This document shows, in pieces, positions 1,344 to 23,320 of a DNA stretch of 64,000 nucleotides (position 1 is its first letter; each line of letters starts with the position of its first letter). Under the pieces are notes generated by a model. That model saw only the letters and a list, made by a program, of their open reading frames with translations. It was not told where the DNA came from and ran no database searches. Position numbers and translations under genes: made by a program. The stretch is from Clostridiales bacterium UBA4080 (GTDB lineage Bacteria; Bacillota; Clostridia; Lachnospirales; Vallitaleaceae), in NCBI GenBank assembly GCA_002381865.1, contig DFYO01000019.1:76202-140201 (forward strand). The letters are read 5' to 3'.

Positions 1344-1468
1344 TTACCCCCATATAATTTTTTTAAATTAGTTGATTGTTTAACTTGTTTTTAACTTAAA
1401 AACTAAACCCCATAACTATCTAACATTTAAAAAACCCAAATATCTAGATGTATTTCTTATAATATTTC

Positions 1469-1810
1469 TTATAAGAAACAAGAAAGAACGAAACCACCAA
1501 AAGTACCACCAAGAATTGCAACGATTAAGTTAACAAATCCTTTTCCGAAATCTGCTTTATCTACTACTACGTTTGCAACGAATAAACCTGAGCCAGCTGC
1601 CCATGCCATATCGATCCAAGCTGAATCTGGCATTTGATAAATCATACCAACACCATGATTAAGTGACCAAGTAGTACCAACGATAAATCCTGCTGCTAAC
1701 CATCCGCCGATAGGTCCAAAAGTATCACAAAGTTTCCCCCAGCCTAGTCGAATGAAAAATGGAAATATAAATCCCCCAAAAAATGTAGCTAATGCTAATT
1801 GTGCAGTCAT
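1469..1810 (-). CDS. small polytopic membrane protein, paralog of 1831..2181; putative glycerol-uptake subunit
   Basis: 113 aa, Gly/aromatic-rich TM segments. The core GGWLAAGFIVGTTWSLNH...IDMAWAAGSG aligns with GGWFAGFAIISGMWFLNH...VDMACGIAVAG of the neighbour. Sits between glpP and glpK. Confidence 0.6.
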   Translation of the reverse strand: MTAQLALATFFGGFIFPFFIRLGWGKLCDTFGPIGGWLAAGFIVGTTWSLNHGVGMIYQMPDSAWIDMAWAAGSGLFVANVVVDKADFGKGFVNLIVAILGGTFGGFVLSCFL

Positions 1811-1830
1811 TTAAGTTTTCCTCCTTTTAA

Positions 1831-2181
1831 TTAGTTTGATTTTGCTAAATGATTTTGAATTAAACCTGCAGTAATACCACCACAGATACCACCAAGAACA
1901 ACTAAGCCTAAAGTTGGAGCTGCGTTTCCTACTTTATCCCATCCGTTCATAAATCCATCACGAGTTGTTCCAGCCACAGCGATACCACAAGCCATGTCTA
2001 CAAATGCTCCATCATTGTTGATAATGCCAATAAAGTGATTTAAGAACCACATACCACTAATAATAGCAAAACCTGCAAACCAACCTCCAGCGATACCATA
2101 CGCGCCAGCAAAAGCTCCCCAAACGCTCATAACAAAAATACCTGCTATTGCTGTTCCTAAAAATGTACCTACATGTTTCAT
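1831..2181 (-). CDS. small polytopic membrane protein, paralog of 1469..1810; putative glycerol-uptake subunit
   Basis: 116 aa, same W-x-LNH / DMA motifs as the neighbour. SD GGGAGG upstream of the ATG. Confidence 0.6.
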   Translation of the reverse strand: MKHVGTFLGTAIAGIFVMSVWGAFAGAYGIAGGWFAGFAIISGMWFLNHFIGIINNDGAFVDMACGIAVAGTTRDGFMNGWDKVGNAAPTLGLVVLGGICGGITAGLIQNHLAKSN

Positions 2182-8500: not shown

Positions 8501-8542
8501 AAAAAAACAGAGCCTATTTTTTTCAAAATCTGCTCTGTTTTT
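8501..8542. terminator. bidirectional-looking terminator
   Basis: ACAGAGC...GCTCTGT stem flanked by an A-run and a T-run. Confidence 0.55.
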
Positions 8543-8583: not shown

Positions 8584-9078
8584 TTATTCCTGTGGTTCTT
8601 CTTTATTATAAGTTATTGAAACATACTCATCTGCTACTGTATAGCTTACCGATACAGTTTCTTTTGTCTCTTCTTTGCTTCCCATAAATGATAATGTGTT
8701 TTCATCCTGCATTGCAAAGGTCTGTTCATATCCCATTCCTTTAAGCTTTTCTACATATTCTGAATAATCATCCCTGTCTACTTCTTTTAGTCCAATTAGT
8801 TGTCCTGTTCCGATATTCATTACTGTTTCTACCCTGCCTTTAAGCTTCGGAAGATCCCCCAAGCCATCTTTTGGCCATTCCAAATCACTTCCAGTTTTTA
8901 AGCTGCTTCCATCATCACCCTTAATCTCTACTTCGCCGTCCTTAACGTCTACATTTGGTCCTAAAATTGTGTCTGCTGCTTTTTCAGCCATCTTATCTTT
9001 GATTTTAGAACATCCGCTAACTGAAAAAACCAAAGCAAGTACTACCACTAAGCTTAAAATCCTTTTCATAACCTTCAC
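8584..9078 (-). CDS. hypothetical lipoprotein
   Basis: Signal peptide plus lipobox VSGCS. No recognisable domain. Confidence 0.6.
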   Translation of the reverse strand: MKVMKRILSLVVVLALVFSVSGCSKIKDKMAEKAADTILGPNVDVKDGEVEIKGDDGSSLKTGSDLEWPKDGLGDLPKLKGRVETVMNIGTGQLIGLKEVDRDDYSEYVEKLKGMGYEQTFAMQDENTLSFMGSKEETKETVSVSYTVADEYVSITYNKEEPQE

Positions 9079-9164
9079 AATTTAAACCTCCATCATTCTT
9101 TTATTTCAATGGCTCGTGCCAATGAATTCACAATATCTGCTTGCAAAATACACTCTAATTAATT

Positions 9165-10532
9165 TTACACGTTTTCTATAATTCTTGCAACATGAATTCC
9201 ACTCGCGGCTGCTTGAGATAATGAATGCGTAACTCCCGAGCAGTCTCCCAAAACGTAGAGTCCTTTCACATTGGTTTCAAGGTTTTCATCTACTTCAATA
9301 TTTGAATTGTAAAATTTAACCTCAACACCATATAATAGTGTATCTTCATTTGCAGTCCCTGGTGCAATTTTATCCAATGCATAAATCATCTCAACAATAT
9401 CATCTAACTGTCTTTTTGGTAAAACCAAGCTCAAATCCCCAGGAGTTGCATTTAACGTTGGATTTAAAAACGACTTTAGCATCCTTCTTTCACTACTTCT
9501 TCTTCCTTTTACAAGATCTCCAAAGCGTTGCATCAAAACTCCGCCTCCTAGCATATTACTTAATCTTGCAATTGATTCGCCATATTCATTGCTGTTTTTA
9601 AAGGGTTCTGTAAATTTACTGGAAACTAGCAAAGCAAAATTTGTATTTTCTGTATGAAGTGCCTCTTCTGAATAGCTATGCCCATTTACCGTTACAATAT
9701 CACCGTAATTCTCAGTTACCACTTCTCCGTAAGGATTCATACAGAAGGTTCTTACTACATCATTATATTTTTTTGTCTTGTAGACAATTTTACTTTCATA
9801 CACATCATCTGTAATGTGTTTGAAAACCAAAGCCGGTAATTCAACTCTTACACCTATGTCTACTCGGTTATTAGTTGTTTTAATATCAAATTTTTCGCAT
9901 ACCTTTCCAATCCATTTTGAACCAGTTCTTCCTGTTGCAACAATTAGCTTTTTTGTTTCAAAGGTTTCTTCCTTTGTAGCTACATAGAAAGTATCCTTTT
10001 GTTTTTCTACATTTGTAACCTCAGTTTCAAATCTTATATCAATTTTATCTTTTATATATTGAAACATATTTTCTGCAATAACAAGATTTCTATCTGTACC
10101 TAGATGTCTTACTTTTGCATCCAACAAATGAAGGTCATGCCTTAATGCTTCTGTTTTCAGCTTACTGTTTTCTGTAGAATAAAGCTTTGCCTCTCTTCCT
10201 CCCATTGCAAGATTAATATCATCAACCTCCCACATCAAGCTAATAGCCTTATCTCTTCCAACAAATTTATACAGTTCTCCTCCAAAATTGTTTGTAATAT
10301 TAAATTTACCATCCGAAAAACCTCCCGCCCCATAGAAGCCTTCCATAATGCTGCAGCTTTTGCATTTACATTCAGTTATTCTTGGATTAATAGTTTTTGG
10401 ACATTTTCTTCTATCTAAAGGATAGCCCTTTTCTAGCATAAGGATTTTTTTATTGGTCCCGCTTTTTACTAACTCATAAGCACAAAATACACCTGCCGCA
10501 CCTGCACCCACTATAATCAAATCATACATCAT
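9165..10532 (-). CDS. FAD-dependent oxidoreductase (COG2509-like)
   Basis: N-terminal dinucleotide fold DLIIVGAGAAGVFCA, C-terminal GLYVLGDCSG. Start placed at the ATG at 10532, 5 nt after GAGG. Confidence 0.7.
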   Translation of the reverse strand: MMYDLIIVGAGAAGVFCAYELVKSGTNKKILMLEKGYPLDRRKCPKTINPRITECKCKSCSIMEGFYGAGGFSDGKFNITNNFGGELYKFVGRDKAISLMWEVDDINLAMGGREAKLYSTENSKLKTEALRHDLHLLDAKVRHLGTDRNLVIAENMFQYIKDKIDIRFETEVTNVEKQKDTFYVATKEETFETKKLIVATGRTGSKWIGKVCEKFDIKTTNNRVDIGVRVELPALVFKHITDDVYESKIVYKTKKYNDVVRTFCMNPYGEVVTENYGDIVTVNGHSYSEEALHTENTNFALLVSSKFTEPFKNSNEYGESIARLSNMLGGGVLMQRFGDLVKGRRSSERRMLKSFLNPTLNATPGDLSLVLPKRQLDDIVEMIYALDKIAPGTANEDTLLYGVEVKFYNSNIEVDENLETNVKGLYVLGDCSGVTHSLSQAAASGIHVARIIENV

Positions 10533-11894: not shown

Positions 11895-13616
11895 TTAATT
11901 AATATCATTTATATTACTAGCAACAATCGTGCCAGTTAATAGTTCCTTAATCTTAGAAGCTTGATTATATGACATAATACTTTCTACAAATTGCTTTTCT
12001 GCCTTAGATTCTATTATTTGCTCTTTGATTTTCGGTATTGATGGGGCGCTCATACTTAGCTCATCTATGCCCATTCCAACAAGTAACCTTGTCATAATAG
12101 GGTCTCCAGCCATTTCACCACATATTCCTACCCATTTTCCGTTTTCATGTGCTGCCTCTGAAACCTTTTTAACAAGCCTCAAGATTGCAATATCAAAATG
12201 CGAATATAGCTTGCTGATTTTTTGATTTCCTCTGTCTACAGCTAATGTATATTGAACTAAGTCGTTTGTTCCAATACTGAAAAAGTCAACCTCCTTAGCA
12301 AATACATCCGCCATAATTGCCGCTGCCGGTGTTTCAACCATAATGCCAAGTTGTATATTTTCACCATACTTTACGCCTTCATTATCAAGTTGCTTTTTAG
12401 CTTCTTCAATTATTTCTTTTGCTTTATTTATTTCTTCAAGGCTGATTATCATAGGCAGCATTATAGCTACCCTTCCATAGGCAGAAGCTCTTAATATAGC
12501 TCTTATCTGAGTAATAAAAATATCTGTTCTTTCCAAACTTATTCTAATAGCACGAAATCCTAGAAACGGGTTTTCCTCTTTGCCTATTTCCAAATAAGAT
12601 AGAGGCTTGTCTCCTCCAATATCAAGCGTCCTTATAACGCATAATTCGTCTTTTAGCTTTTGCACTACATATTTATATGCTTCAAACTGTTCTTCCTCTG
12701 TAGGAAGTCTTTTTTTACCCATAAATATAAATTCTGTCCTAAAAAGCCCGACACCCTTACAGCCGTATTTCAAAGCCTCATCAATATCCTCCGGATTACC
12801 TATATTAGCAGCCAGAATTATTTCTCTGTTATCCTTGGTAATTGCCGGTATTTCATTTAAGCTCATATAATATGCCTTCTTCTTTTCCTCTTCCTTAAGC
12901 TGCTTATTATATTTGTCAATGCTATCTTTGTCTGGCTTCAATATAAGACTTCCATTATAACCGTCAATAATTGCAACATCTTCCTTACTATAGTCGCCTA
13001 TTTCTTCTCCAACGCCAACAACTGTTACAATGTTTTTAGATTTGGCAATAATTACCGCATGAGATGTAGTGCTTCCATTCCCCATAACAATTCCTGCAAT
13101 TTTTTCTTGTGGAAGATTTGCTACAACCGAGGGTTCAATTTCTTTGCCGTATAAAATAATATTATCCTGCTCAAAAACATTTTCCTCTATTCCCAAAATA
13201 ATTTTTAATACTCTTTTTGAAATATCCTTAACATCAACAGCTCTTTCTCTTAAATAAGGATCATCAAGGGCTCCCAGCATATCCGATAATTCTTTTGCTA
13301 CATTTATTATAGCTGTCGGAGCGCAGATATCAGCTTCAATTTGCTGTAAAGTCCCATCATAAAACATTGGATCCTTAAGCATAAGCATGTGTGCTTCCAT
13401 AATATCAGCCTGCTCTCTTTCATCCTCTTTTTTAGCTTTAATCAATATCTCGCTGAGTTGTTTTTCAGCTATAGCGATAGCTTGGTTTAATTTTTGTTTC
13501 TCCTGTTCAGAATCACCCTTTTGATAGGTTTTTAGCTCTTCTTCAAAGCTATCCCTTAATATCATAATTCTGCCAATACCAATACCTTCAACCACGCCCT
13601 TGCCTTTGAACTCCAT
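11895..13616 (-). CDS. ptsI: phosphoenolpyruvate-protein phosphotransferase (PTS enzyme I), full length
   Basis: Active-site region GSTTSHAVIIAKS, FFSIGTNDLVQYTLAVDR, GICGEMAGDP. Start at MEFKGKG (13616) after a GAGGTGG SD. Confidence 0.93.
   Translation of the reverse strand: MEFKGKGVVEGIGIGRIMILRDSFEEELKTYQKGDSEQEKQKLNQAIAIAEKQLSEILIKAKKEDEREQADIMEAHMLMLKDPMFYDGTLQQIEADICAPTAIINVAKELSDMLGALDDPYLRERAVDVKDISKRVLKIILGIEENVFEQDNIILYGKEIEPSVVANLPQEKIAGIVMGNGSTTSHAVIIAKSKNIVTVVGVGEEIGDYSKEDVAIIDGYNGSLILKPDKDSIDKYNKQLKEEEKKKAYYMSLNEIPAITKDNREIILAANIGNPEDIDEALKYGCKGVGLFRTEFIFMGKKRLPTEEEQFEAYKYVVQKLKDELCVIRTLDIGGDKPLSYLEIGKEENPFLGFRAIRISLERTDIFITQIRAILRASAYGRVAIMLPMIISLEEINKAKEIIEEAKKQLDNEGVKYGENIQLGIMVETPAAAIMADVFAKEVDFFSIGTNDLVQYTLAVDRGNQKISKLYSHFDIAILRLVKKVSEAAHENGKWVGICGEMAGDPIMTRLLVGMGIDELSMSAPSIPKIKEQIIESKAEKQFVESIMSYNQASKIKELLTGTIVASNINDIN
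11919..11934 (-). promoter_or_regulatory. sigma-54 (-24/-12) promoter in front of dhaK, inside the 3' end of ptsI
   Basis: Minus strand reads TGGCACGATTGTTGCT (TGGCAC-N5-TTGCT). It ends ~40 nt upstream of the dhaK ATG. Confidence 0.7.
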
Positions 13617-13626
13617 AAATCCACCT

Positions 13627-13893
13627 CTAGTCTTCATAAAAATTATTTGTAATCAAGGTATCCAAGGCTTCTATTGCTTTATCTTCATCTGCTCCTTCTA
13701 CTGCTACTGTCAGCTCCTGGCCTGTTTTAATACCCAAAGACATAATCATCAATAAGCTTTTGGCATTTGCTTTTTTATTATTCCCAAGCAAGGTAATATT
13801 GCTTATATATTGAGAAGAAATTTTTGCAATTTCAGCTGCTGGACGAGCATGTATCCCCAGCGAATTAATTATTGTATATTTATTCTGTTTCAT
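13627..13893 (-). CDS. ptsH: HPr phosphocarrier protein
   Basis: GIHARPAAEI (His15 motif) and AKSLLMIMSLG (Ser46-like). Start at MKQNKY (13893) with a GGAGG SD. Confidence 0.9.
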   Translation of the reverse strand: MKQNKYTIINSLGIHARPAAEIAKISSQYISNITLLGNNKKANAKSLLMIMSLGIKTGQELTVAVEGADEDKAIEALDTLITNNFYED

Positions 13894-15041: not shown

Positions 15042-15057
15042 AGCAAGAAGTGTGCCA
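15042..15057 (-). promoter_or_regulatory. sigma-54 (-24/-12) promoter in front of dhaL-dhaM-ptsH-ptsI
   Basis: Minus strand reads TGGCACACTTCTTGCT, starting 1 nt after the stop codon of the EBP gene. Confidence 0.75.
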
Positions 15058-15058
15058 G

Positions 15059-17101
15059 CTATTTGCATAAATTAAATTTCCTAGCCTTTGCTGCAACCGT
15101 ATTATGTGTAAGTCCTAATACCTTTCCCGCAGCATTAAAGCTTTTATATTTTTCAAGAGCCTTTTCAATAACAATTTTTTCATATTCTTCCCAGGAAAGC
15201 ATATCCACCTCTTTTTCCACAATGCACTCAAAATCATCTGTTTCTATTTGCCTTTGGTTGTCTAAAATATACATTGGAATATTTTCTGCCCTTACAACAT
15301 TTCCTTCCATTAAAATCATAGTTCTTTCCATTACATTTTCCAGTTCCCTGATATTGCCTGGCCAAGTATAATTCTTTAGAGCCCTAAGCGCCTCTTTCTC
15401 GAACATAATTTTATCTTTTCCCAAATCTTCAGATATTCTTTCACAAAAATGTTCCGCGAGAATCGGAATATCCTCTCTTCGATCTCTTAAAGGCGGCAGC
15501 CAAATAGGAATAACATTAAGACGATAGTATAAATCTTCTCTAAACTCTCCATTTTTTACCATTTGCTCTAAATCTTGGTTTGTAGCCGCTACAATCCTTA
15601 CATCTACCTTAATATTCTTTTCTCCACCTACCCTTTGAAATTCCTTGCTCTGAACTACACGAAGTAGCTTAACCTGCATACTTTTATCAAGCTCTCCGAT
15701 TTCATCTAAAAATATAGTTCCTTTATCTGCTAGTTCAAATCTTCCCAGCTTTGTTTTATATGCTCCTGTAAATGAGCCTTTTTCATGTCCAAATAATTCA
15801 CTCTCAATCAGTGTAGGAGGGATGGCTCCGCAATTTACTCTAACAAATGGTTCTGAAGCCCTAGAGCTAGAATAGTGAATTGCTTCAGCTATAAGCTCCT
15901 TGCCTGTTCCGCTCTCTCCTCTAATTAAAACAGTATATTTGCTTGTAGCAGCTTTTGCTGCTGTTGTCATGCAATCATAAAGCTTTCCGCTTACTCCCTT
16001 AATATTCTCAAATGCGGGGCCTAGCTTTTTAACTCTGATTAATTCCTCCTGCAAATAGTCAGCCTTCGCTGATGCCTTGCTCAGCTTTTCCATTAATGTC
16101 TGAACCTCAGTAATATCCTTAATTATGGATATTCCTCCCATTATCTGTTCATCTACTATTAACGGATTAACATTGCTTACAACTGTTACTCCATTCTCTT
16201 TTTTGCTGATTCCACCCCTTACCGCTTTGCCATGTTCAAGAACCTTAACCCTGTCTCCTTCTGGTGACAATTCCCTGACATTAACTCCTATCAATTCCTT
16301 GGCTTTTTTGTCAATTATTTTGCAATATGCTGCATTTACATAAGTAATTTCACCATTATTATCAAAAAAACAAATTCCATCTTGCACAGATTCCAATATC
16401 AATTGATATTTTTCCTTAAGCTCTTTTATTTCTTTTAATTGCCAAGAAACATTTGTAAGCATTGAAACATCTTCAAATATACTGACTGCGCCTCTTATCT
16501 GGTTTTCAACCAAAAGCGGTGAGCTATTAGTTACAACTGTATAATCACCAATGTTTTGAGTATAGCCAATCTCAGTTTTTTTAGTTTGAACGATTTCTGG
16601 CAAAATAGAGTCTGGGAATACATCTCTTATATCCCTTCCAGCAATTCTATCTGCCGGTACATCAAATATTCTTTCAGCCTCCTTATTAAAAAAGGTTACA
16701 ATATTATTTTCATTTATTACAATCAATCCATTTGCAATGCTGTCGAAAATATTTTCTGCTGTCAAAATATTATCCTGTAAGATACTATCAATATCTCCTA
16801 CCGCATTTTGGTCCAATTCGAAATCACCACCAAGATATTCCGCCATTAATATTGATGCTTCTTCAGCACCCTCACCTTCTGTAAGCATTTCAAACTCTTC
16901 TTTAGCTTTAATCTTCATTGAAATCAATAGCAGAATGCTATTTAGCGGCACCTCTTTATATGCCCCCTTTTTCACCTTAAATTCTACATTGTATTTTTTT
17001 TGGAGTTCCTCTGCTTTCTGAACTATCATTGCCGCAACTCTTGCGTGCAAGCCCTTAGCATGTTGCATAACAATTTTTTTACTTATACTCTTTTTAGCCA
17101 T
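15059..17101 (-). CDS. sigma-54-dependent transcriptional activator with N-terminal HPr-like domain, two PAS-like regions, AAA+ domain and HTH
   Basis: N-terminus [12 protein letters not shown] (HPr His motif). AAA+ domain: [21 protein letters not shown] (GAFTGA variant), VRIVAATN. C-terminal HTH: [21 protein letters not shown]. Confidence 0.88.
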
Positions 17102-17143: not shown

Positions 17144-17159
17144 AGCAAGAATCGTGCCA
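17144..17159 (-). promoter_or_regulatory. sigma-54 (-24/-12) promoter in front of the EBP gene
   Basis: Minus strand reads TGGCACGATTCTTGCT. It ends ~43 nt upstream of the EBP ATG at 17101. Confidence 0.75.
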
Positions 17160-17203: not shown

Positions 17204-17237
17204 TATTTAGATAAAGTTGTCAATAATTATCTAAATA
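17204..17237. promoter_or_regulatory. perfect 11-bp inverted repeat, candidate enhancer (UAS) site
   Basis: TATTTAGATAA-N12-TTATCTAAATA. The centre lies roughly 60 nt upstream of the -24 element at 17154..17159. Overlaps the rpoN stop codon. Confidence 0.4.
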
Positions 17238-18580
17238 TATTCCCTTCTTTTATCTGCTGCCATTATTCCAAGCTGACTTCTGTATTTTGCTACTGTTCTT
17301 CTGGAAATCTTCATGCCTTCTTGCTGAAGCTTCTCAACTATCATCATGTCGCTCAGTGGCTCTCTCTTATTTTCAGCTTTAACAATACTTAATATTGCTT
17401 GCTTTATGCTATCAGAGGAATTATCCTGTTGAATATTTTTCCCAACGTTTTTGCATGAAAAAAAATATTTCAGAGGGTACAATCCCCATTTACACAGGAG
17501 ATATTTATCATTTATTGCTCTGCTAACAGTGGATTCATGCATTTGTGTAATATCTGCAACGTCTTTCAAGTTTAGAGGTCTTAAAAAGCCTTTTCCTTTT
17601 TCAAAAAAATCCTTTTGCTGTTTAGCCAATACCTCTGCAATTTTTTCTAAGGTGTCGTTTCTCTGATTAATGCATTTTAATAGCCAACTTGCATTACTGT
17701 AATTATCACCCAAATACTTTACCAGCTCTTTATCTTGAGTTAATTTCAAATATTTACAGTATTCTGTGTTTATCTTTATATTTGGAATATTTGCTTCATT
17801 TATAGAAATAACCAACCCCATTTCACCTTGTTCAATCACAATATCAGGCTTGATATATTGAGTAATTCCAGAGTAAAATGAAGCTCCTGGCTTAGGATTA
17901 AGCATTTTTATTTCTCGAATAAGCTCCTGTGTCTCAGCTATTTCAATTCCCAGTTCTTCTGCTATATGCTTGATTTTATTATCAGCAATCTTTTCCAAAT
18001 ACTTATCAGCAAGCAGATATGTCAATGTATTCTTTTTCCCCTGATTTTCAAGCTGTATCAGCAAACACTCTCTTAAGCTCCTAGCCCCAACTCCTGAAGG
18101 CTCCATCTTTTGTATTATTACCACAGCCTTCTCTGCTGATTTTTTATCACATCTGAGTTTTTTTGTAATTTCCTCAAGCTCAAAGCTTAAATATCCTTTT
18201 TCATCTAAGCTTTCAACAAGAAATTCTACTATCAATTTAGTTTTTTTATCTAGTTTAAGAAATATTAATTGTTCTTTGAGGAACTCTGATAATGTTTGTT
18301 TAATAAACGATTCATCCTTTATTTCATTTGAAAAATCCTGGTCGTCTTGTCCCTTTTTGTTTTTATGCTTGTAATAATCCGCATCCTCCTGATTCCTTTG
18401 TATTAAAACAGAGCTTTTATCTGATTGTTCGTCATATTCAAGTGCAGGATTACTTAATATTTCTTCATGAATCATTTCTGACAATTCTTCGTTGCCTAGC
18501 TTTAAAATTTTTAATGAATATTCCATTTTTGGCGTCAGTATTAAGTTTTGGGAGTAAATCATATCCATATCAAAATTCAT
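17231..18580 (-). CDS. rpoN: RNA polymerase sigma-54 factor
   Basis: Region I LILTPKMEYSLKILKLGNEELSEMIHEEILSNPALE. C-terminal RpoN box HESTVSRAINDKYL. Confidence 0.93.
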   Translation of the reverse strand: MNFDMDMIYSQNLILTPKMEYSLKILKLGNEELSEMIHEEILSNPALEYDEQSDKSSVLIQRNQEDADYYKHKNKKGQDDQDFSNEIKDESFIKQTLSEFLKEQLIFLKLDKKTKLIVEFLVESLDEKGYLSFELEEITKKLRCDKKSAEKAVVIIQKMEPSGVGARSLRECLLIQLENQGKKNTLTYLLADKYLEKIADNKIKHIAEELGIEIAETQELIREIKMLNPKPGASFYSGITQYIKPDIVIEQGEMGLVISINEANIPNIKINTEYCKYLKLTQDKELVKYLGDNYSNASWLLKCINQRNDTLEKIAEVLAKQQKDFFEKGKGFLRPLNLKDVADITQMHESTVSRAINDKYLLCKWGLYPLKYFFSCKNVGKNIQQDNSSDSIKQAILSIVKAENKREPLSDMMIVEKLQQEGMKISRRTVAKYRSQLGIMAADKRREYI

Positions 18581-18596
18581 TAGCTGTATTCCTTCT

Positions 18597-19790
18597 TTAT
18601 CCCTTTTTAATAGGAAGCCTTATCAAAAAGCTGCTCCCTTGATTTTCTTCACTTTGAGCTTCAATTTCTCCCCCATGCTTATTAACAATAATGTCATAAG
18701 AAATACTTAATCCAAGCCCCGTTCCTCTTTGAGAGGCTTTAGTTGTGTATAGCGGATTGAATATCTTTTCTAGATTTTCGTTATTTATTCCCGGTCCGTT
18801 ATCAGATATTCTAATGCAAACATATTCACTTTCTTTATAGGCATTTATATGTATATGCCCTCGGTCTTCACGATACTGTTTTCTTATTGCTTCAATTCCA
18901 TTAAGCATAACATTCAAGAAAACCTGTCCTAGCTGACTTGAATTTGCCCATATCTCCGGGAGCTTATCTATTTCTTTTGTAATATCAACCGAATCCTTAG
19001 CCTCATTTGCAATAACTATAATTATTTGATTAATAAGACTTTCAATATCGCATATATCATATTCATTTTTAGCCTTTGCCCAAGACAGGTTCAAAAGCGA
19101 TTGAATTATCTGTGAAACCTTTTCTAAAGAGTCCTTTGAGGAATCTATGATCAAACGTACTTCTTCAAAATTCCCCTCTTCAAATTCTCCTTTTTTAACC
19201 TTCTCACAGTAATTTGCCAGCTGTTGAAGATTAAGATACGCTTTTTCAATAGGTTGGTTTATTTCATATCCTATCCCCGCTGCAATCTCTCCAATATTAG
19301 ACATTTTTCTTGATTGCACCAAATGAAACTGTGCATCCTCTAAGAGCTTGTTGGCAATTTTCAGTTCTTCATTTTGACCCTTTACAACCTCCAGCATTTC
19401 TCTAAGCATTCTTGTATTGGCCCTTGTTCTTGCTGCTGCACTAACTCTGGCTTTAAATTCAATTATTTCTATAGGCTTTTGAATATAATCATTTGCTCCG
19501 TATTCAAAGCATGATTTTAAGCTCTCCTTATCATCAAGGGATGTTAACATAATAATCTGAATATCGTTAAATGCATCAATATCACGTACATTTCTAAGAA
19601 CTTCAATTCCGCTCATTTCTGGCATAATAATATCAAGCAAAAGAATATCTATTGCTTCTGTTTCTAATATTCCGATAACATCTTGCGGCCTTTGGCACAA
19701 GATTCCCGTATAATCATTAAAATAGGTTTTCAGATAACCGTCAGCAAACTTTAAATTTAGTTTGTCATCATCTACTACCAGCACTCTCAT
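18597..19790 (-). CDS. REC domain fused to a histidine-kinase-like core whose H-box His is replaced by Tyr
   Basis: REC: VVDDD, LLLDIIMPEMSG, MLTS, IQKPI. H-box position reads AAGIGYEINQPI. The N, G1 and G2 boxes are intact (NVMLNGIEA, DNGPGI, GTGLGLSIS). Confidence 0.8.
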   Translation of the reverse strand: MRVLVVDDDKLNLKFADGYLKTYFNDYTGILCQRPQDVIGILETEAIDILLLDIIMPEMSGIEVLRNVRDIDAFNDIQIIMLTSLDDKESLKSCFEYGANDYIQKPIEIIEFKARVSAAARTRANTRMLREMLEVVKGQNEELKIANKLLEDAQFHLVQSRKMSNIGEIAAGIGYEINQPIEKAYLNLQQLANYCEKVKKGEFEEGNFEEVRLIIDSSKDSLEKVSQIIQSLLNLSWAKAKNEYDICDIESLINQIIIVIANEAKDSVDITKEIDKLPEIWANSSQLGQVFLNVMLNGIEAIRKQYREDRGHIHINAYKESEYVCIRISDNGPGINNENLEKIFNPLYTTKASQRGTGLGLSISYDIIVNKHGGEIEAQSEENQGSSFLIRLPIKKG

Positions 19791-19982
19791 ATTAACACCT
19801 CATTTTAAGCTTAAATTATTATATAAATCTTTGTTATTAGATTATATCCTATATGTTAAATTTTTTCTATTCTTTTTCTAAAAAAGCCTATTTTTTTGTT
19901 AATATGATTATTCTTGCCAAATTGTCAGTATTTAACATGCTATTAATTTTACTTATACTCATTCTCTTATTATTGTCTTTCT

Positions 19983-20065: not shown

Positions 20066-20095
20066 AAAAAAATGACTGGACATAATGTCCAATCA
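20066..20095 (-). terminator. rho-independent terminator of glmS
   Basis: TGATTGGACA-TTA-TGTCCAGTCA followed by T7 on the minus strand. Confidence 0.75.
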
Positions 20096-20125
20096 TTTAT
20101 ATGCTGTAATATTTATTATTTATTT

Positions 20126-21958
20126 TTATTCAACTGTTACACTTTTTGCCAGATTTCTTGGCTTGTCAACATCATGGCCAAGACCGCACGCAATATAATA
20201 CGCAAATAACTGTTGCGGTATGTTTACAAGAATAGATGTAAACATCCAGTGGGTTTTAGGAACATATATTACCTCATCTGCAACCTTTTTGATTTCTTCA
20301 TTTCCTTCAAGTGCAATTGCCAAGACCTTAGCTCCTCTAGCTTTAACTTCTTTGATATTGCTTACAGTTTTTTCATACAATTCCTCTTGTCCAACTAATC
20401 CTATGAGTAATGAACCCTTTTCAATCAATGCTATAGGCCCATGCTTTAGCTCTCCTGCTGCGTAAGGTTCAGCATGAAGATAAGCGATTTCTTTTATTTT
20501 AAGCGCACCTTCCATAGAAACAGCATAATCAAGTCCTCTTCCAATATAGAAAACATTTTTCATGCTAATAAATCTATCGGCAAGCGTTTTAATGTAATCT
20601 GCCTGCTCTAATATAGTCTCAACCTTTCCCGGCAAGCTATAAAGCTCTTCTTTGATTTCAACAAATTCTTCATCTGTAATCTCACCAAGCTCCATTGCAA
20701 TTTTTGTTGATATCAAATACATTGCACATAGCTGTGCAGAATATGCTTTTGTGGAGGCTACCGCTATCTCTGGTCCTGCCCAAGTATATAACACATCAGA
20801 TGCTTCTCTTGCAATTGTTGAACCCACAACATTGACTACGCCTATCACATGTGCTCCAGCTTTTTTGGCCATTCTAAGTGCTGCAACAGTATCAGCAGTC
20901 TCTCCTGACTGAGATACAACAATCATCAATGTGTTTTTATCAATAATAGGTTCTCTATATCTAAACTCAGATGCTGTTTCAGCAACTACGGGTATTCTAG
21001 ATACTCTCTCTATTAAATACTTGCCTACAAATCCGCTATAAAAAGCTGTCCCACAGCCGATAATATATATTTTGTTGATTTTTGAGAGTTCTTTTTTAGT
21101 AAGCTTTATATCGTCTAAAATAATTTCATCCTGATCCAAAGGTATTCTTGGCATCAAGGTATCTCTAATTACCTTTGGCTGTTCAAAAATCTCCTTTGCC
21201 ATAAAATGTTCATATCCACCTTTTTCTGCAGCAGCAATGTCCCAAGTTACCTTAAAAATCTTTTTCTTGATTTCCTGTTTTTTGCTGTCAAAAAGTGTCA
21301 CCCCTTCCTTTTCAACAATTGCAATTTCGCTATCCTCAAGCAAATAAATATCTCTGGTATATTTCAAAATTGCCGGAATATCTGATGCTATAAAGTTTTC
21401 ACCTTTTCCCAAGCCAATAATTAAAGGGCTGTCTTTTCTAGTTGCAATAATCTTGTTTGGATTGTCCTTGTGCATTACCGCAAAAGCATACGAGCCTTCA
21501 ATTCTTTCCGTAGCCATAATTACAGCATCAAAAAGATTCTTAGTAATACTATAGCAATAATCTATAAGCATAACAGCTACTTCTGTATCTGTTTCAGATA
21601 CAAATACATAGCCTTTAGACTCTAGCTCCTCTTTTAAGGTTAAATAGTTTTCAATAATACCATTATGTACTAAGGCGATTGTTTGTTCAGTATTCATGTG
21701 AGGGTGAGAATTAACATCAGAAGGTTCTCCATGTGTAGCCCATCTAGTATGAGCAATTCCCATATTCCCCTTCGCAGTATCCTTTTCTAGCTTTTCCTCC
21801 AAATTAACAAGTCTGCCTTTTGTTTTTACCAGCTTAATATTGCTATTATAAACAGCAACACCAGCTGAATCATAGCCTCTGTATTCTAACGCCTTTAGCC
21901 CGTCTAGCAATATAGGCGTTGCTTGCTGTTCTCCAATATATCCAACAATTCCACACAT
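20126..21958 (-). CDS. glmS: glutamine--fructose-6-phosphate aminotransferase
   Basis: MCGIVGYIG N-terminal nucleophile, tandem SIS domains, C-terminal AKSVTVE. Confidence 0.97.
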   Translation of the reverse strand: MCGIVGYIGEQQATPILLDGLKALEYRGYDSAGVAVYNSNIKLVKTKGRLVNLEEKLEKDTAKGNMGIAHTRWATHGEPSDVNSHPHMNTEQTIALVHNGIIENYLTLKEELESKGYVFVSETDTEVAVMLIDYCYSITKNLFDAVIMATERIEGSYAFAVMHKDNPNKIIATRKDSPLIIGLGKGENFIASDIPAILKYTRDIYLLEDSEIAIVEKEGVTLFDSKKQEIKKKIFKVTWDIAAAEKGGYEHFMAKEIFEQPKVIRDTLMPRIPLDQDEIILDDIKLTKKELSKINKIYIIGCGTAFYSGFVGKYLIERVSRIPVVAETASEFRYREPIIDKNTLMIVVSQSGETADTVAALRMAKKAGAHVIGVVNVVGSTIAREASDVLYTWAGPEIAVASTKAYSAQLCAMYLISTKIAMELGEITDEEFVEIKEELYSLPGKVETILEQADYIKTLADRFISMKNVFYIGRGLDYAVSMEGALKIKEIAYLHAEPYAAGELKHGPIALIEKGSLLIGLVGQEELYEKTVSNIKEVKARGAKVLAIALEGNEEIKKVADEVIYVPKTHWMFTSILVNIPQQLFAYYIACGLGHDVDKPRNLAKSVTVE

Positions 21959-21970
21959 TCTGTTATCCTC

Positions 21971-23320
21971 CTAATTCAGTCTTTCCTCTAATAGTTTTGC
22001 CAGCTTAGTTGCTTCAGTTAATAGCTCTTCTTGATTTTTCCCTTCAATCATAACTCTGACTAAGGGCTCAGTTCCTGAAGGGCGAATCAAAACCCTTCCG
22101 CTTCCAGCAAACTTTTCTTCAAGTACCTTAATTGCTTCTTGAATAATTTTATCATTCATATAGCTTTCTTTATTTTCATTTTTTATCTTTGCATTCACTA
22201 GCACTTGAGGAAGTACCTCCATAACTGATGCTAGCTCTGAAAGCTTTTTACCCGATGCTTTTATTACTTCTAATAAATGAAGTGCTGTAAGTAGTCCGTC
22301 GCCAGTAGTATTCTCATCTAAGAATATAATATGTCCTGACTGTTCTCCACCTAGATTATTACCATCCTCTAACATCTTTTCAAGAACATACCTATCTCCA
22401 ACCTTTGTTTGCTCTATATTAATCTGCTGCTTTGAGCCCATAATAAAAAACCCTAAATTACTCATAATAGTTGCTACAATTGTATTATTCTTAAGTGTCC
22501 CCTGTTGCTTCATATAAAGACCAATTACAGCCATAATCTGATCTCCGTCAACTAGGTTTCCTTTTTCATCAACTGCAAGGCACCTGTCAGCGTCTCCGTC
22601 AAAAGCAAGTCCAAGATCAGCTTCTACCTGCACTACATATTGCTGAAGATCCTTCATGTGAGTGGACCCGCATTTTTTGTTGATATTTGTTCCATCAGGT
22701 TCATTATGTATAATAATTACCTCTGCTCCAAGCTGTCTTAATGCCTCTGGCGCTGAAACATAGGATGCTCCATTTGCACAGTCAATTACAATTTTTATAC
22801 CTTCAAGAGAAGTGTTTATTTGTCTTTTTGCATATCTTATATAATCATAAACACATTCTGTCCTTTCAATGACCCTCCCAATTGCAGTTCCAACCGGAAG
22901 TTCAATATCTTTATTATCATTAGCTAATAATTCTTCGATTTCTTCTTCAATTTTATCAGATAATTTGTAGCCATCCTTATTAAAAAACTTGATTCCATTA
23001 TATTCTACCGGATTGTGTGACGCTGAAATTACTACTCCCGCATCTGCTTCGTACTCTCTTGTTAAATATGATACCGCCGGTGTAGGTAAAATTCCAACCG
23101 ACAACGCATCTGCTCCCACAGAGCATATTCCTGCAATCATTGCAGCAGTAAGCATTTCTCCTGATAATCTTGTATCTCGGCCAATTAAAATAGTTGGCTT
23201 ATGATGATTTTCCTTTGTAAGAACATAAGCTCCTGCTTGTCCAAGTTTATATGCTAAATCAATTGTCAATTCTTTATTTGCTATTCCCCTTACTCCATCA
23301 GTACCAAATAAGTTTCCCAT
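21971..23320 (-). CDS. glmM: phosphoglucosamine mutase
   Basis: [10 protein letters not shown] active-site serine loop, FDGDADR metal loop. Confidence 0.95.

Follow-up and report, generated by a model that had tools for sequence, protein, structure and literature searches.

The 64,000-nucleotide stretch of DNA analysed here (the window, from contig DFYO01000019.1, positions 76,202 to 140,201, of Clostridiales bacterium UBA4080) carries on its minus strand, immediately upstream of the sigma-54 gene rpoN, a gene at 18597..19790 for a Rec-controlled protein that resembles a histidine kinase (HK). In this protein of 397 amino acids a receiver domain (REC), a signalling helix (αS), a DHp domain and an ATP-binding CA domain follow one another, as delineated from the open reading frame (ORF), Pfam matches and an AlphaFold2 (AF2) model, and a tyrosine, Tyr175, stands where the phospho-accepting histidine is expected. 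The identical protein is encoded on five contigs. Of the two places shown, one is from a JGI sample and the other from a Logan sample, and across the gene the JGI copy (L090) agrees with the window at every nucleotide. Because the same protein recurs in independent assemblies, in the JGI copy with an identical nucleotide sequence, Tyr175 is not an artefact of assembly or sequencing.

The REC domain (residues 1-116; 19443..19790, minus strand) is matched by Response_reg (PF00072) over residues 3-116 with 76.6 bits, and its phospho-acceptor pocket of D7, D8, D53, T83 and K105 shows no variation in an alignment of 120 homologues. The CA domain (residues 245-395; 18606..19058, minus strand) is matched by HATPase_c (PF02518) over residues 284-395 with 89.1 bits. 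All elements by which a GHKL domain is recognised are present in it, i.e. the N-box asparagine, the DxGxG of the G1 box, the F box and the GxGxG of the G2 box, and N293, N297, D330, G332, G334, F344 and G356-L361 (including G356, G358 and G360) are constant in the clade of closest homologues described below. The initial annotation, which had described an intact receiver domain and intact N, G1 and G2 boxes, is borne out on both points, as it is in having seen neither a transmembrane segment nor a sensor domain: the three domains use up all 397 residues and leave no room for another domain, and the peak 19-residue hydropathy, 1.84, is that of the β3 strand of REC rather than of a transmembrane helix.

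In the AF2 model, which was built with the 120 homologues as input and has a mean pLDDT of 83.6, the receiver (residues 1-108) leads into a single unbroken predicted helix of residues 109-199 (19194..19466, minus strand; DSSP assignment) that comprises REC α5, αS and DHp α1, and this helix is followed by a hairpin, by DHp α2 (residues 205-235; 19086..19178, minus strand; AF2 secondary structure and alignment) and by CA (residues 245-393). The match to HisKA (PF00512) reaches only 19.3 bits, short of the gathering score of 26.9 (residues 167-239, profile positions 3-64 of 66); nevertheless, the HisKA fold and its register are still clear from phmmer alignments and from the model. The six top PDB fold matches of the model in a Foldseek search are chains of LvrB (8vc9, E = 6e-25), and LvrB is also the second-best PDB sequence match in phmmer. 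The NCBIfam model hybrid_RR_LvrB aligns to residues 2-394 with a score of 106.9 against a cut-off of 500 and, because this score is far below the cut-off, the Tyr175 protein is not an LvrB orthologue. As judged from the structural model, its architecture is REC-αS-DHp-CA, as in the "Rec-HK" type represented by LvrB, but with Tyr instead of His: the receiver pocket, the helix that continues from αS into DHp and the CA domain of a Rec-HK are all there, and the phospho-His of the H-box is absent.

The substitution is part of a degenerate H-box, AAGIGYEINQPI (residues 170-181; 19248..19283, minus strand), in which E176, I177 and P180 are kept, Y175 replaces the His and Q179 replaces the T/N that is associated with phosphatase activity. 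The TAT codon of Tyr175 occupies 19266..19268 (read 19268..19266). Its placement at the phospho-His position by the initial annotation holds in phmmer alignments to four solved kinases, in which Y175 lies opposite the phospho-His of ZraS (aagvaHEirnPl), LvrB (H161), CckA and FixL, and in an alignment with the 120 top-scoring database homologues, 115 of which have His in this column. No different conserved His was found at the acceptor site. The candidates H156, H312, H314 and H372 were examined and rejected: H156 does not vary within the clade, but the His-bearing sisters have it too, in the wider family its position is taken by H, Y, N, S, Q or F, and it lies 19 residues upstream of Y175; the other three are all located in the CA domain.

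The D/ExxT/N motif, with T or N at position +4 from the His, defines HisKA phosphatase activity (PMC12963549). Of 255 His-bearing relatives, 253 have T or N there; the residues of the six clade members at this position are Q, Q, V, R, R and A. The window protein reads Y-E-I-N-Q-P, with Q179 at +4, and lacks the E/D-x-x-T/N signature of a bifunctional HisKA kinase/phosphatase. From its sequence, the DHp domain is predicted to be catalytically disabled, with neither the His nor the +4 T/N. A joint loss of the two residues is seen also outside the clade, where five other His-less Rec-HK representatives (P0124, P0134, P0137, P0150 and P0265) have Q or N at the acceptor position and four of the five also lack the +4 T/N; when lineages are treated as independent, the +4 T/N is missing in five of six non-His lineages (Fisher p = 1e-8). 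Several of these five proteins have degraded N or G2 boxes too, unlike the window clade.

When 1.8 billion representatives were searched exhaustively, the window protein and its closest relatives (P0001-P0006) fell into a single 50%-identity cluster; they are the six best matches and are monophyletic in 200 of 200 bootstraps. Three of them are Tyr-bearing with a TAT codon, i.e. the window protein itself (P0001) and P0002, which is 95% identical to it, both with the H-box YEINQP, and P0003, which is 59% identical and has YEISVP. The sister subclade consists of P0004 (NDINRP), P0005 (HDITRP, codon CAT) and P0006 (NDINAP, codon AAT). At the level of loci, the acceptor codon is TAT in the window, L092 and L001, CAT in L002 and AAT in L005, with the first base alone differing. 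Conservation of the Tyr in orthologues is therefore partial: it is kept in L092, where the gene also adjoins rpoN, and in L001, and it is His in L002 and Asn in L005. This speaks against Tyr as a specifically required residue. The worry that the Tyr might be strain-specific or an error is removed by its presence in homologues of 95% and 59% identity and by the selection on the gene. The ORF is uninterrupted in all six proteins, down to 52% identity, and the window gene differs from its 95% homologue in L092 at 184 of 1194 nucleotides, i.e. by 15% with a synonymous divergence (dS) above 1. The ratio of nonsynonymous to synonymous rates (dN/dS) against L092 is 0.025 overall, with 0.019 for REC, 0.043 for αS plus DHp and 0.016 for CA, and because it is so low the gene must have a function and be under tight constraint although the His is gone.

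The sister group of the whole clade is His-bearing, with the H-box HEIN[NT]P, and compared with it the DHp domain is the most diverged region of the clade. Identity in DHp α1 is 47% between the clade and the sister group and 84% within the sister group; the corresponding values for α2 are 39% and 68%. The positions A174, H175, E176, N178, N179, S186 and N187 are 96-100% conserved in the family and variable in the clade, and the alignment reveals a deletion of about 28 residues at the DHp hairpin that is common to the three Tyr-bearing proteins only. Since all six clade members lack the +4 T/N and one still has the His, the loss of the +4 residue most likely preceded the loss of the His, as far as the extant sequences allow the order to be read. 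A clade-specific degenerate DNA pattern (TRMLREM-N6-QNxELK) matched 12 of 12 clade loci in the set as well as the window and had no match in metagenome contigs; a protein-based metagenome scan found nothing above 35% identity, and a scan of genome contigs with the clade alignment and generic REC motifs yielded, among the matches listed, one clade locus (L008, from the metagenome-assembled genome (MAG) of P0005) and His-bearing paralogues. Because these additional searches found no further members and all members collapse into one 50% cluster, the clade is small.

The relatives that retain the His point to the origin of the clade. In the bootstrap tree P0011 falls within the sister group and P0012, which has the His as well, falls outside this group, and both are encoded in an operon that consists of a FIST sensor, a short HisKA/HATPase kinase, the Rec-HK, a REC-HDOD protein and a REC protein with an additional 340-amino-acid unknown domain (L088 3782..9586 and L089 3781..9524). 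Literature searches did not find a characterisation of a clostridial FIST-HK-RecHK-REC-HDOD-REC phosphorelay. Neither rpoN nor an EcsC gene is present within 10 kb of the His-bearing relatives, and P0011 and the clade member P0005 come from one MAG assembly, GCA_002841375.1. Because the His-bearing relatives reside in the FIST operon and P0011 occurs in the MAG of P0005, the clade goes back to a relay kinase of a multi-step phosphorelay, of which it is a paralogue at a new location.

Combining these data, we suggest that the Tyr175 protein may be a Rec-controlled histidine pseudokinase, functionally similar to DivL of Caulobacter crescentus, with a non-catalytic output by binding, a reading to which we give an even chance of being correct. 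In LvrB, phosphorylation of REC zips the αS coiled coil and frees CA, which phosphorylates the His (PMC13269768). According to the suggested model, (i) the ancestor would have been a canonical Rec-HK of this REC-αS-DHp-CA type inside the FIST-HK-RecHK-REC-HDOD-REC operon, (ii) after duplication and relocation the DHp H-box of the copy would have been stripped of its two catalytic determinants, first the +4 T/N and then the His, which would have changed to Tyr in the window subclade and to Asn in the sister subclade while the DHp surface was also remodelled, and (iii) strong purifying selection would have kept the receiver of the copy phosphorylatable and its ATP-binding domain complete. In the extant protein an upstream kinase would phosphorylate D53, and, as in LvrB, this would rearrange the αS coiled coil together with the way in which CA packs on DHp. 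The output would be a changed protein-protein interaction by the nucleotide-bound DHp-CA module, with no His~P and no phosphotransfer. The most likely partners would be components of the parental phosphorelay or, in the relatives, a co-operonic EcsC-family protein. In the window genome a deletion would have brought the gene and rpoN into a single transcription unit, and co-expression with rpoN would be a derived trait. Among the roles named by the initial annotation, pseudokinase or connector is thus the best reading, and that of a phosphatase is weakened by the lost +4 T/N.

Four points weigh against this model. A phmmer search against six-frame ORFs detected no other REC or HK gene in the window, so that no partner is to be found there. 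The conservation of the ATP boxes, with a dN/dS of 0.016 in CA, exceeds what a pure scaffold would need and is the main unexplained feature. P0005 keeps the His, and kinase activity may thus persist in part of the clade. Finally, with a clade of six proteins, the statements on conservation rest on few lineages. Because the ATP site is fully conserved, some ATP-dependent chemistry may take place, be it autophosphorylation of the Tyr or phosphorylation of a partner in trans.

The second of these activities forms the core of an alternative that we regard as unlikely, namely that the protein, itself without the His, uses its intact CA domain to phosphorylate a partner's His in trans, e.g. in a heterodimer with a His-bearing paralogue, or that catalytically dead heterodimers damp the parental phosphorelay. 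DHp domains mediate the dimerisation of histidine kinases, a His-bearing paralogue (P0011) is encoded in the same MAG as the clade member P0005, and invariant ATP boxes under very strong purifying selection would be expected of such a subunit. A matched heterodimer is difficult to reconcile with a DHp domain that is the most diverged part of the protein and that in the Tyr subclade carries the hairpin deletion; moreover, the paralogue is known from the MAG of P0005 and not from the window organism, and autophosphorylation of LvrB has been proposed to occur in cis (PMC13269768).

That Tyr175 is a genuine alternative acceptor, phosphorylated by CA to give a stable switch mark instead of a relay intermediate, we consider decidedly unlikely. 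The Tyr is always encoded by TAT in three lineages down to 59% identity, Glu176, the general base, is kept together with a complete ATP site, and the first description of DivL reportedly included Tyr phosphorylation; the PDB entry of DivL, 4q20, is titled "tyrosine kinase". Later work saw no autokinase activity of DivL (PMC4211667). Furthermore, the sisters with Asn, which is not phosphorylatable, keep REC and CA equally intact, and a function shared with them needs no acceptor; a Tyr hydroxyl would also be expected to lie further from the helix than the Nε of His. A receiver-gated protein tyrosine autokinase, in which phosphorylation of D53 would free CA onto Tyr175 to generate stable phosphotyrosine in a protein co-expressed with sigma-54, appears very improbable to us. 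If true, it would mean that a labile two-component signal is turned into a stable phosphotyrosine mark.

Equally doubtful as Tyr175 serving as acceptor is a phosphatase-only enzyme that would dephosphorylate a response regulator or its own REC domain with nucleotide as a cofactor. The precedent is NtrB (NRII), the H139N variant of which acts as a phosphatase alone (10.1101/122606), and the clade keeps the E/D at +1, the Pro at +5 and the intact ATP site. What the clade has replaced, by Q, Q, V, R, R and A, is precisely the +4 residue that is T/N in 99% of the His-bearing relatives, and the positions of α1 at which a response regulator docks have diverged as well.

The position of the gene next to rpoN raises the further question of whether the protein is linked to sigma-54. 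In the window, rpoN (17231..18580, minus strand; Pfam Sigma54_AID, CBD and DBD; TIGR02395, 408.6 bits) is separated from the Tyr175-protein gene by a 16-nt spacer between the stop codon and the rpoN ATG (18581..18596, minus strand), as initially described. This spacer contains the ribosome-binding site GAAGGAA and the deletion junction discussed below, and no terminator-like site is present between the two genes. Upstream, a non-coding block 5' of the gene (19831..19940, minus strand) is about 94% identical to L092 over 110 nt, while about 60% of synonymous sites differ, and a promoter scan identified a sigma-70-like promoter, TAGAAA-17-TATAAT (19869..19841, minus strand), inside this conserved block. 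An imperfect palindrome, GTTAAATA...TATTAAC, is also found in the block and could be a candidate operator. An intrinsic terminator after glmS with a 13-bp stem and a T run (20070..20098, minus strand) isolates the unit from the glmM-glmS operon. Because the 16-nt spacer is free of a terminator and a promoter-like site is found upstream, with the glmS terminator beyond it, co-transcription with rpoN is likely in the window lineage, as a derived condition, and rpoN is probably read through from the promoter of the upstream gene.

The relatives are arranged differently. In clade loci that are long enough, the gene for the Rec-HK-like protein is followed by EcsC (PF12787, 3-24 nt downstream), in L005 by a CDF transporter gene, and then by a small conserved ORF, rpoN, the gene for an HPr-PAS-PAS-AAA+ enhancer-binding protein (EBP), DhaL and DhaM. 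Between the small ORF and rpoN, L001 has a strong intrinsic terminator at 8510..8539 (11-bp stem) and L005 has one at 9580..9607 (10-bp stem), and because this terminator precedes rpoN, rpoN is a separate transcription unit in these two loci. The window and L092 lack the whole stretch from EcsC through the terminator and share the junction GGGATAAAGAAGGAATACAG(C)TAATG with a 1-nt indel between them; a gap of only 15-16 nt to rpoN is found in these two alone, and no homologue of EcsC, the CDF transporter or the small ORF was found within the window. As read from these comparisons, the direct adjacency to rpoN arose by a deletion in the window/L092 lineage; it is derived and does not characterise the clade. 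The co-transcription proposed by the initial annotation is thus plausible in the window genome, where no terminator intervenes, and is not conserved in L001 and L005; co-transcription across orthologues was not found. Literature searches gave no relevant report on kinases encoded beside rpoN in clostridia, nor any on a gene of the present type in that position.

That the protein is a dedicated sigma-54 regulator, passing a two-component signal to sigma-54 or to the HPr-PAS EBP, is in our opinion very unlikely. It is true that rpoN and the EBP gene lie downstream on the same strand in five of five clade loci long enough, that the 15-16 nt gap is kept in the window and L092 across 15% nucleotide divergence and that LvrB signals to an anti-sigma-type protein (PMC13269768). 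Set against this are the strong terminator and the two to three unrelated genes before rpoN in L001 and L005, i.e. EcsC, the CDF gene in L005 and the small ORF, which weaken the link to sigma-54 suggested at first; a gene order common to related genomes may be simple inheritance. The EBP contains no receiver domain, as judged from Pfam. Moreover, rpoN has a dN/dS of 0.19 against L092 (N-terminal 193 amino acids, 65% identical), about 7-fold that of the Tyr175-protein gene (0.025, 95% identical), and there is no sign of tight co-evolution. The remaining explanation, i.e. a decaying gene, sequencing error or strain-specific mutation without function, for which the sub-threshold HisKA match and the variable H-box could be cited, has practically no chance of being correct, as it is refuted by the identical protein on five contigs in different samples, by an ORF intact in six proteins to 52% identity with invariant catalytic residues in REC and CA, and by a dN/dS of 0.025 at a dS above 1.

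Several observations concern the surroundings of the gene. RpoN diverges far faster than its neighbours in comparisons with both L092 (rpoN at 1434..2012) and L001 (rpoN at 8661..10028); in the latter, identities are 41% for RpoN, 69% for the EBP and 59% for the Rec-HK-like protein. The small ORF just 5' of rpoN in the relatives (L001 8015..8482; L005 9055..9567; L002 9188..9547) has no Pfam match, and its C-terminal approximately 80 residues are 81-97% conserved among genomes whose remaining proteins are 55-80% identical. The EBP of the window (15059..17101, minus strand) has the domain order HPr-PAS-PAS-AAA+-HTH, with an N-terminal HPr domain of the phosphotransferase system (PTS) and a sigma-54 interaction domain; this architecture is kept in all related loci with 67-69% identity, and the gene adjoins DhaL and DhaM. 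The HPr domain suggests that PTS phosphorylation may act directly on the sigma-54 activator. Three perfect sigma-54 -24/-12 elements, TGGCAC-N5-TTGC, are found on the minus strand of the window, at 17145..17159 (44 nt before the EBP gene), at 15043..15057 (before DhaL) and at 11920..11934 (before DhaK). With a gene for an enzyme I-like protein of its own (11895..13637), the locus resembles a dihydroxyacetone kinase regulon that is controlled by sigma-54, depends on the PTS and has a putatively autoregulated activator. On the other side, glmM (21971..23320) and glmS (20126..21958, both minus strand) are 12 nt apart and followed by the terminator with the 13-bp stem; there is no space for a glmS ribozyme between them, any such ribozyme would have to be upstream of glmM, and no search for it was made.

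Histidine pseudokinases, including one with a His-to-Tyr replacement, are already established, and what is new here would be a pseudokinase of the Rec-HK type. To our knowledge, characterised bacterial histidine pseudokinases are few (DivL, PsmA and RocA) and none of these is a Rec-HK, and literature searches found no described Rec-HK pseudokinase. The clade would represent a natural and independently evolved case of a Rec-HK that is devoid of both DHp catalytic residues and has its receiver and ATP site under very strong selection, and the window protein, soluble and compact with its 397 residues, would be a model for what the catalytic core of a histidine kinase does once it is unable to make His~P. 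The paired and recurrent loss of the His and the +4 T/N in the Rec-HK family suggests a repeated route from relay enzyme to non-catalytic signalling module. The clade also calls for care in annotation: where close members carry a name in other sources, it is "hybrid sensor histidine kinase/response regulator", and the apparent rpoN operon is a one-lineage deletion artefact.

Among characterised proteins, LvrB of Leptospira is closest in architecture. It has the same domain order and a similar size (382 compared to 397 amino acids), and the long helix from REC to DHp is predicted in the Tyr175 protein as well. LvrB autophosphorylates H161, and the phosphoryl group is passed to LvrC (PMC13269768); the Tyr175 protein differs from it in having Tyr instead of H161 and no +4 T/N, and the two are about 22% identical in sequence. 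With NtrB, the clade shares an H-box of the same subfamily, AHEIxNP, and the engineered His-to-Asn replacement of NtrB H139N has occurred naturally in P0004 and P0006. However, engineered mutants of the NtrB H139N type keep the +4 T/N that the natural clade has lost, and the phosphatase analogy probably fails. PsmA of Streptomyces and RocA of group A Streptococcus resemble the Tyr175 protein in having the histidine kinase fold without the catalytic His. PsmA lacks the D/ExxT/N phosphatase motif and has no autokinase activity (PMC12963549), and the joint loss of the His and the +4 T/N is common to it and the Tyr175 protein. In contrast to the Tyr175 protein, neither has an N-terminal receiver as its sole input, PsmA having PAS domains and binding DivIVA at hyphal tips and RocA being a membrane accessory protein of CovRS, and there is no kinship in sequence beyond the fold.

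A further comparison is with DivL, in which Tyr550 replaces the His; DivL is inactive both as a kinase and as a phosphatase, and it binds DivK~P (PMC4211667). Both proteins have a HisKA-type DHp-CA fold with Tyr followed by Glu at the acceptor site, and both are kept and functional despite the lost His. The two nevertheless differ. DivL is a membrane-anchored multi-PAS protein of Alphaproteobacteria without a receiver, whereas the Tyr175 protein is soluble, belongs to a Firmicutes lineage and receives its input through an N-terminal REC domain alone; DivL binds ATP weakly, whereas every ATP box is invariant in the Tyr175 protein; and the Tyr is not fixed in the window clade, with Asn and His in sisters. 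The two have independent origins, the sequence neighbours of the Tyr175 protein being NtrB/ZraS/AtoS-like kinases. In Foldseek the DivL structure 4q20 ranks 39th among the fold matches, at 18% identity, DivL is not among the PDB sequence matches in phmmer at E <= 1e-10, and the PAS-PAS-DHp-CA arrangement by which a DivL homologue would be recognised is not present, there being no PAS domain according to Pfam. What the Tyr175 protein does share with DivL are the properties of a DivL-like pseudokinase, i.e. a histidine kinase fold that is kept, a His that is replaced and a replacement that is conserved, as TAT in the window, L092 and L001 and as Asn in two sisters.

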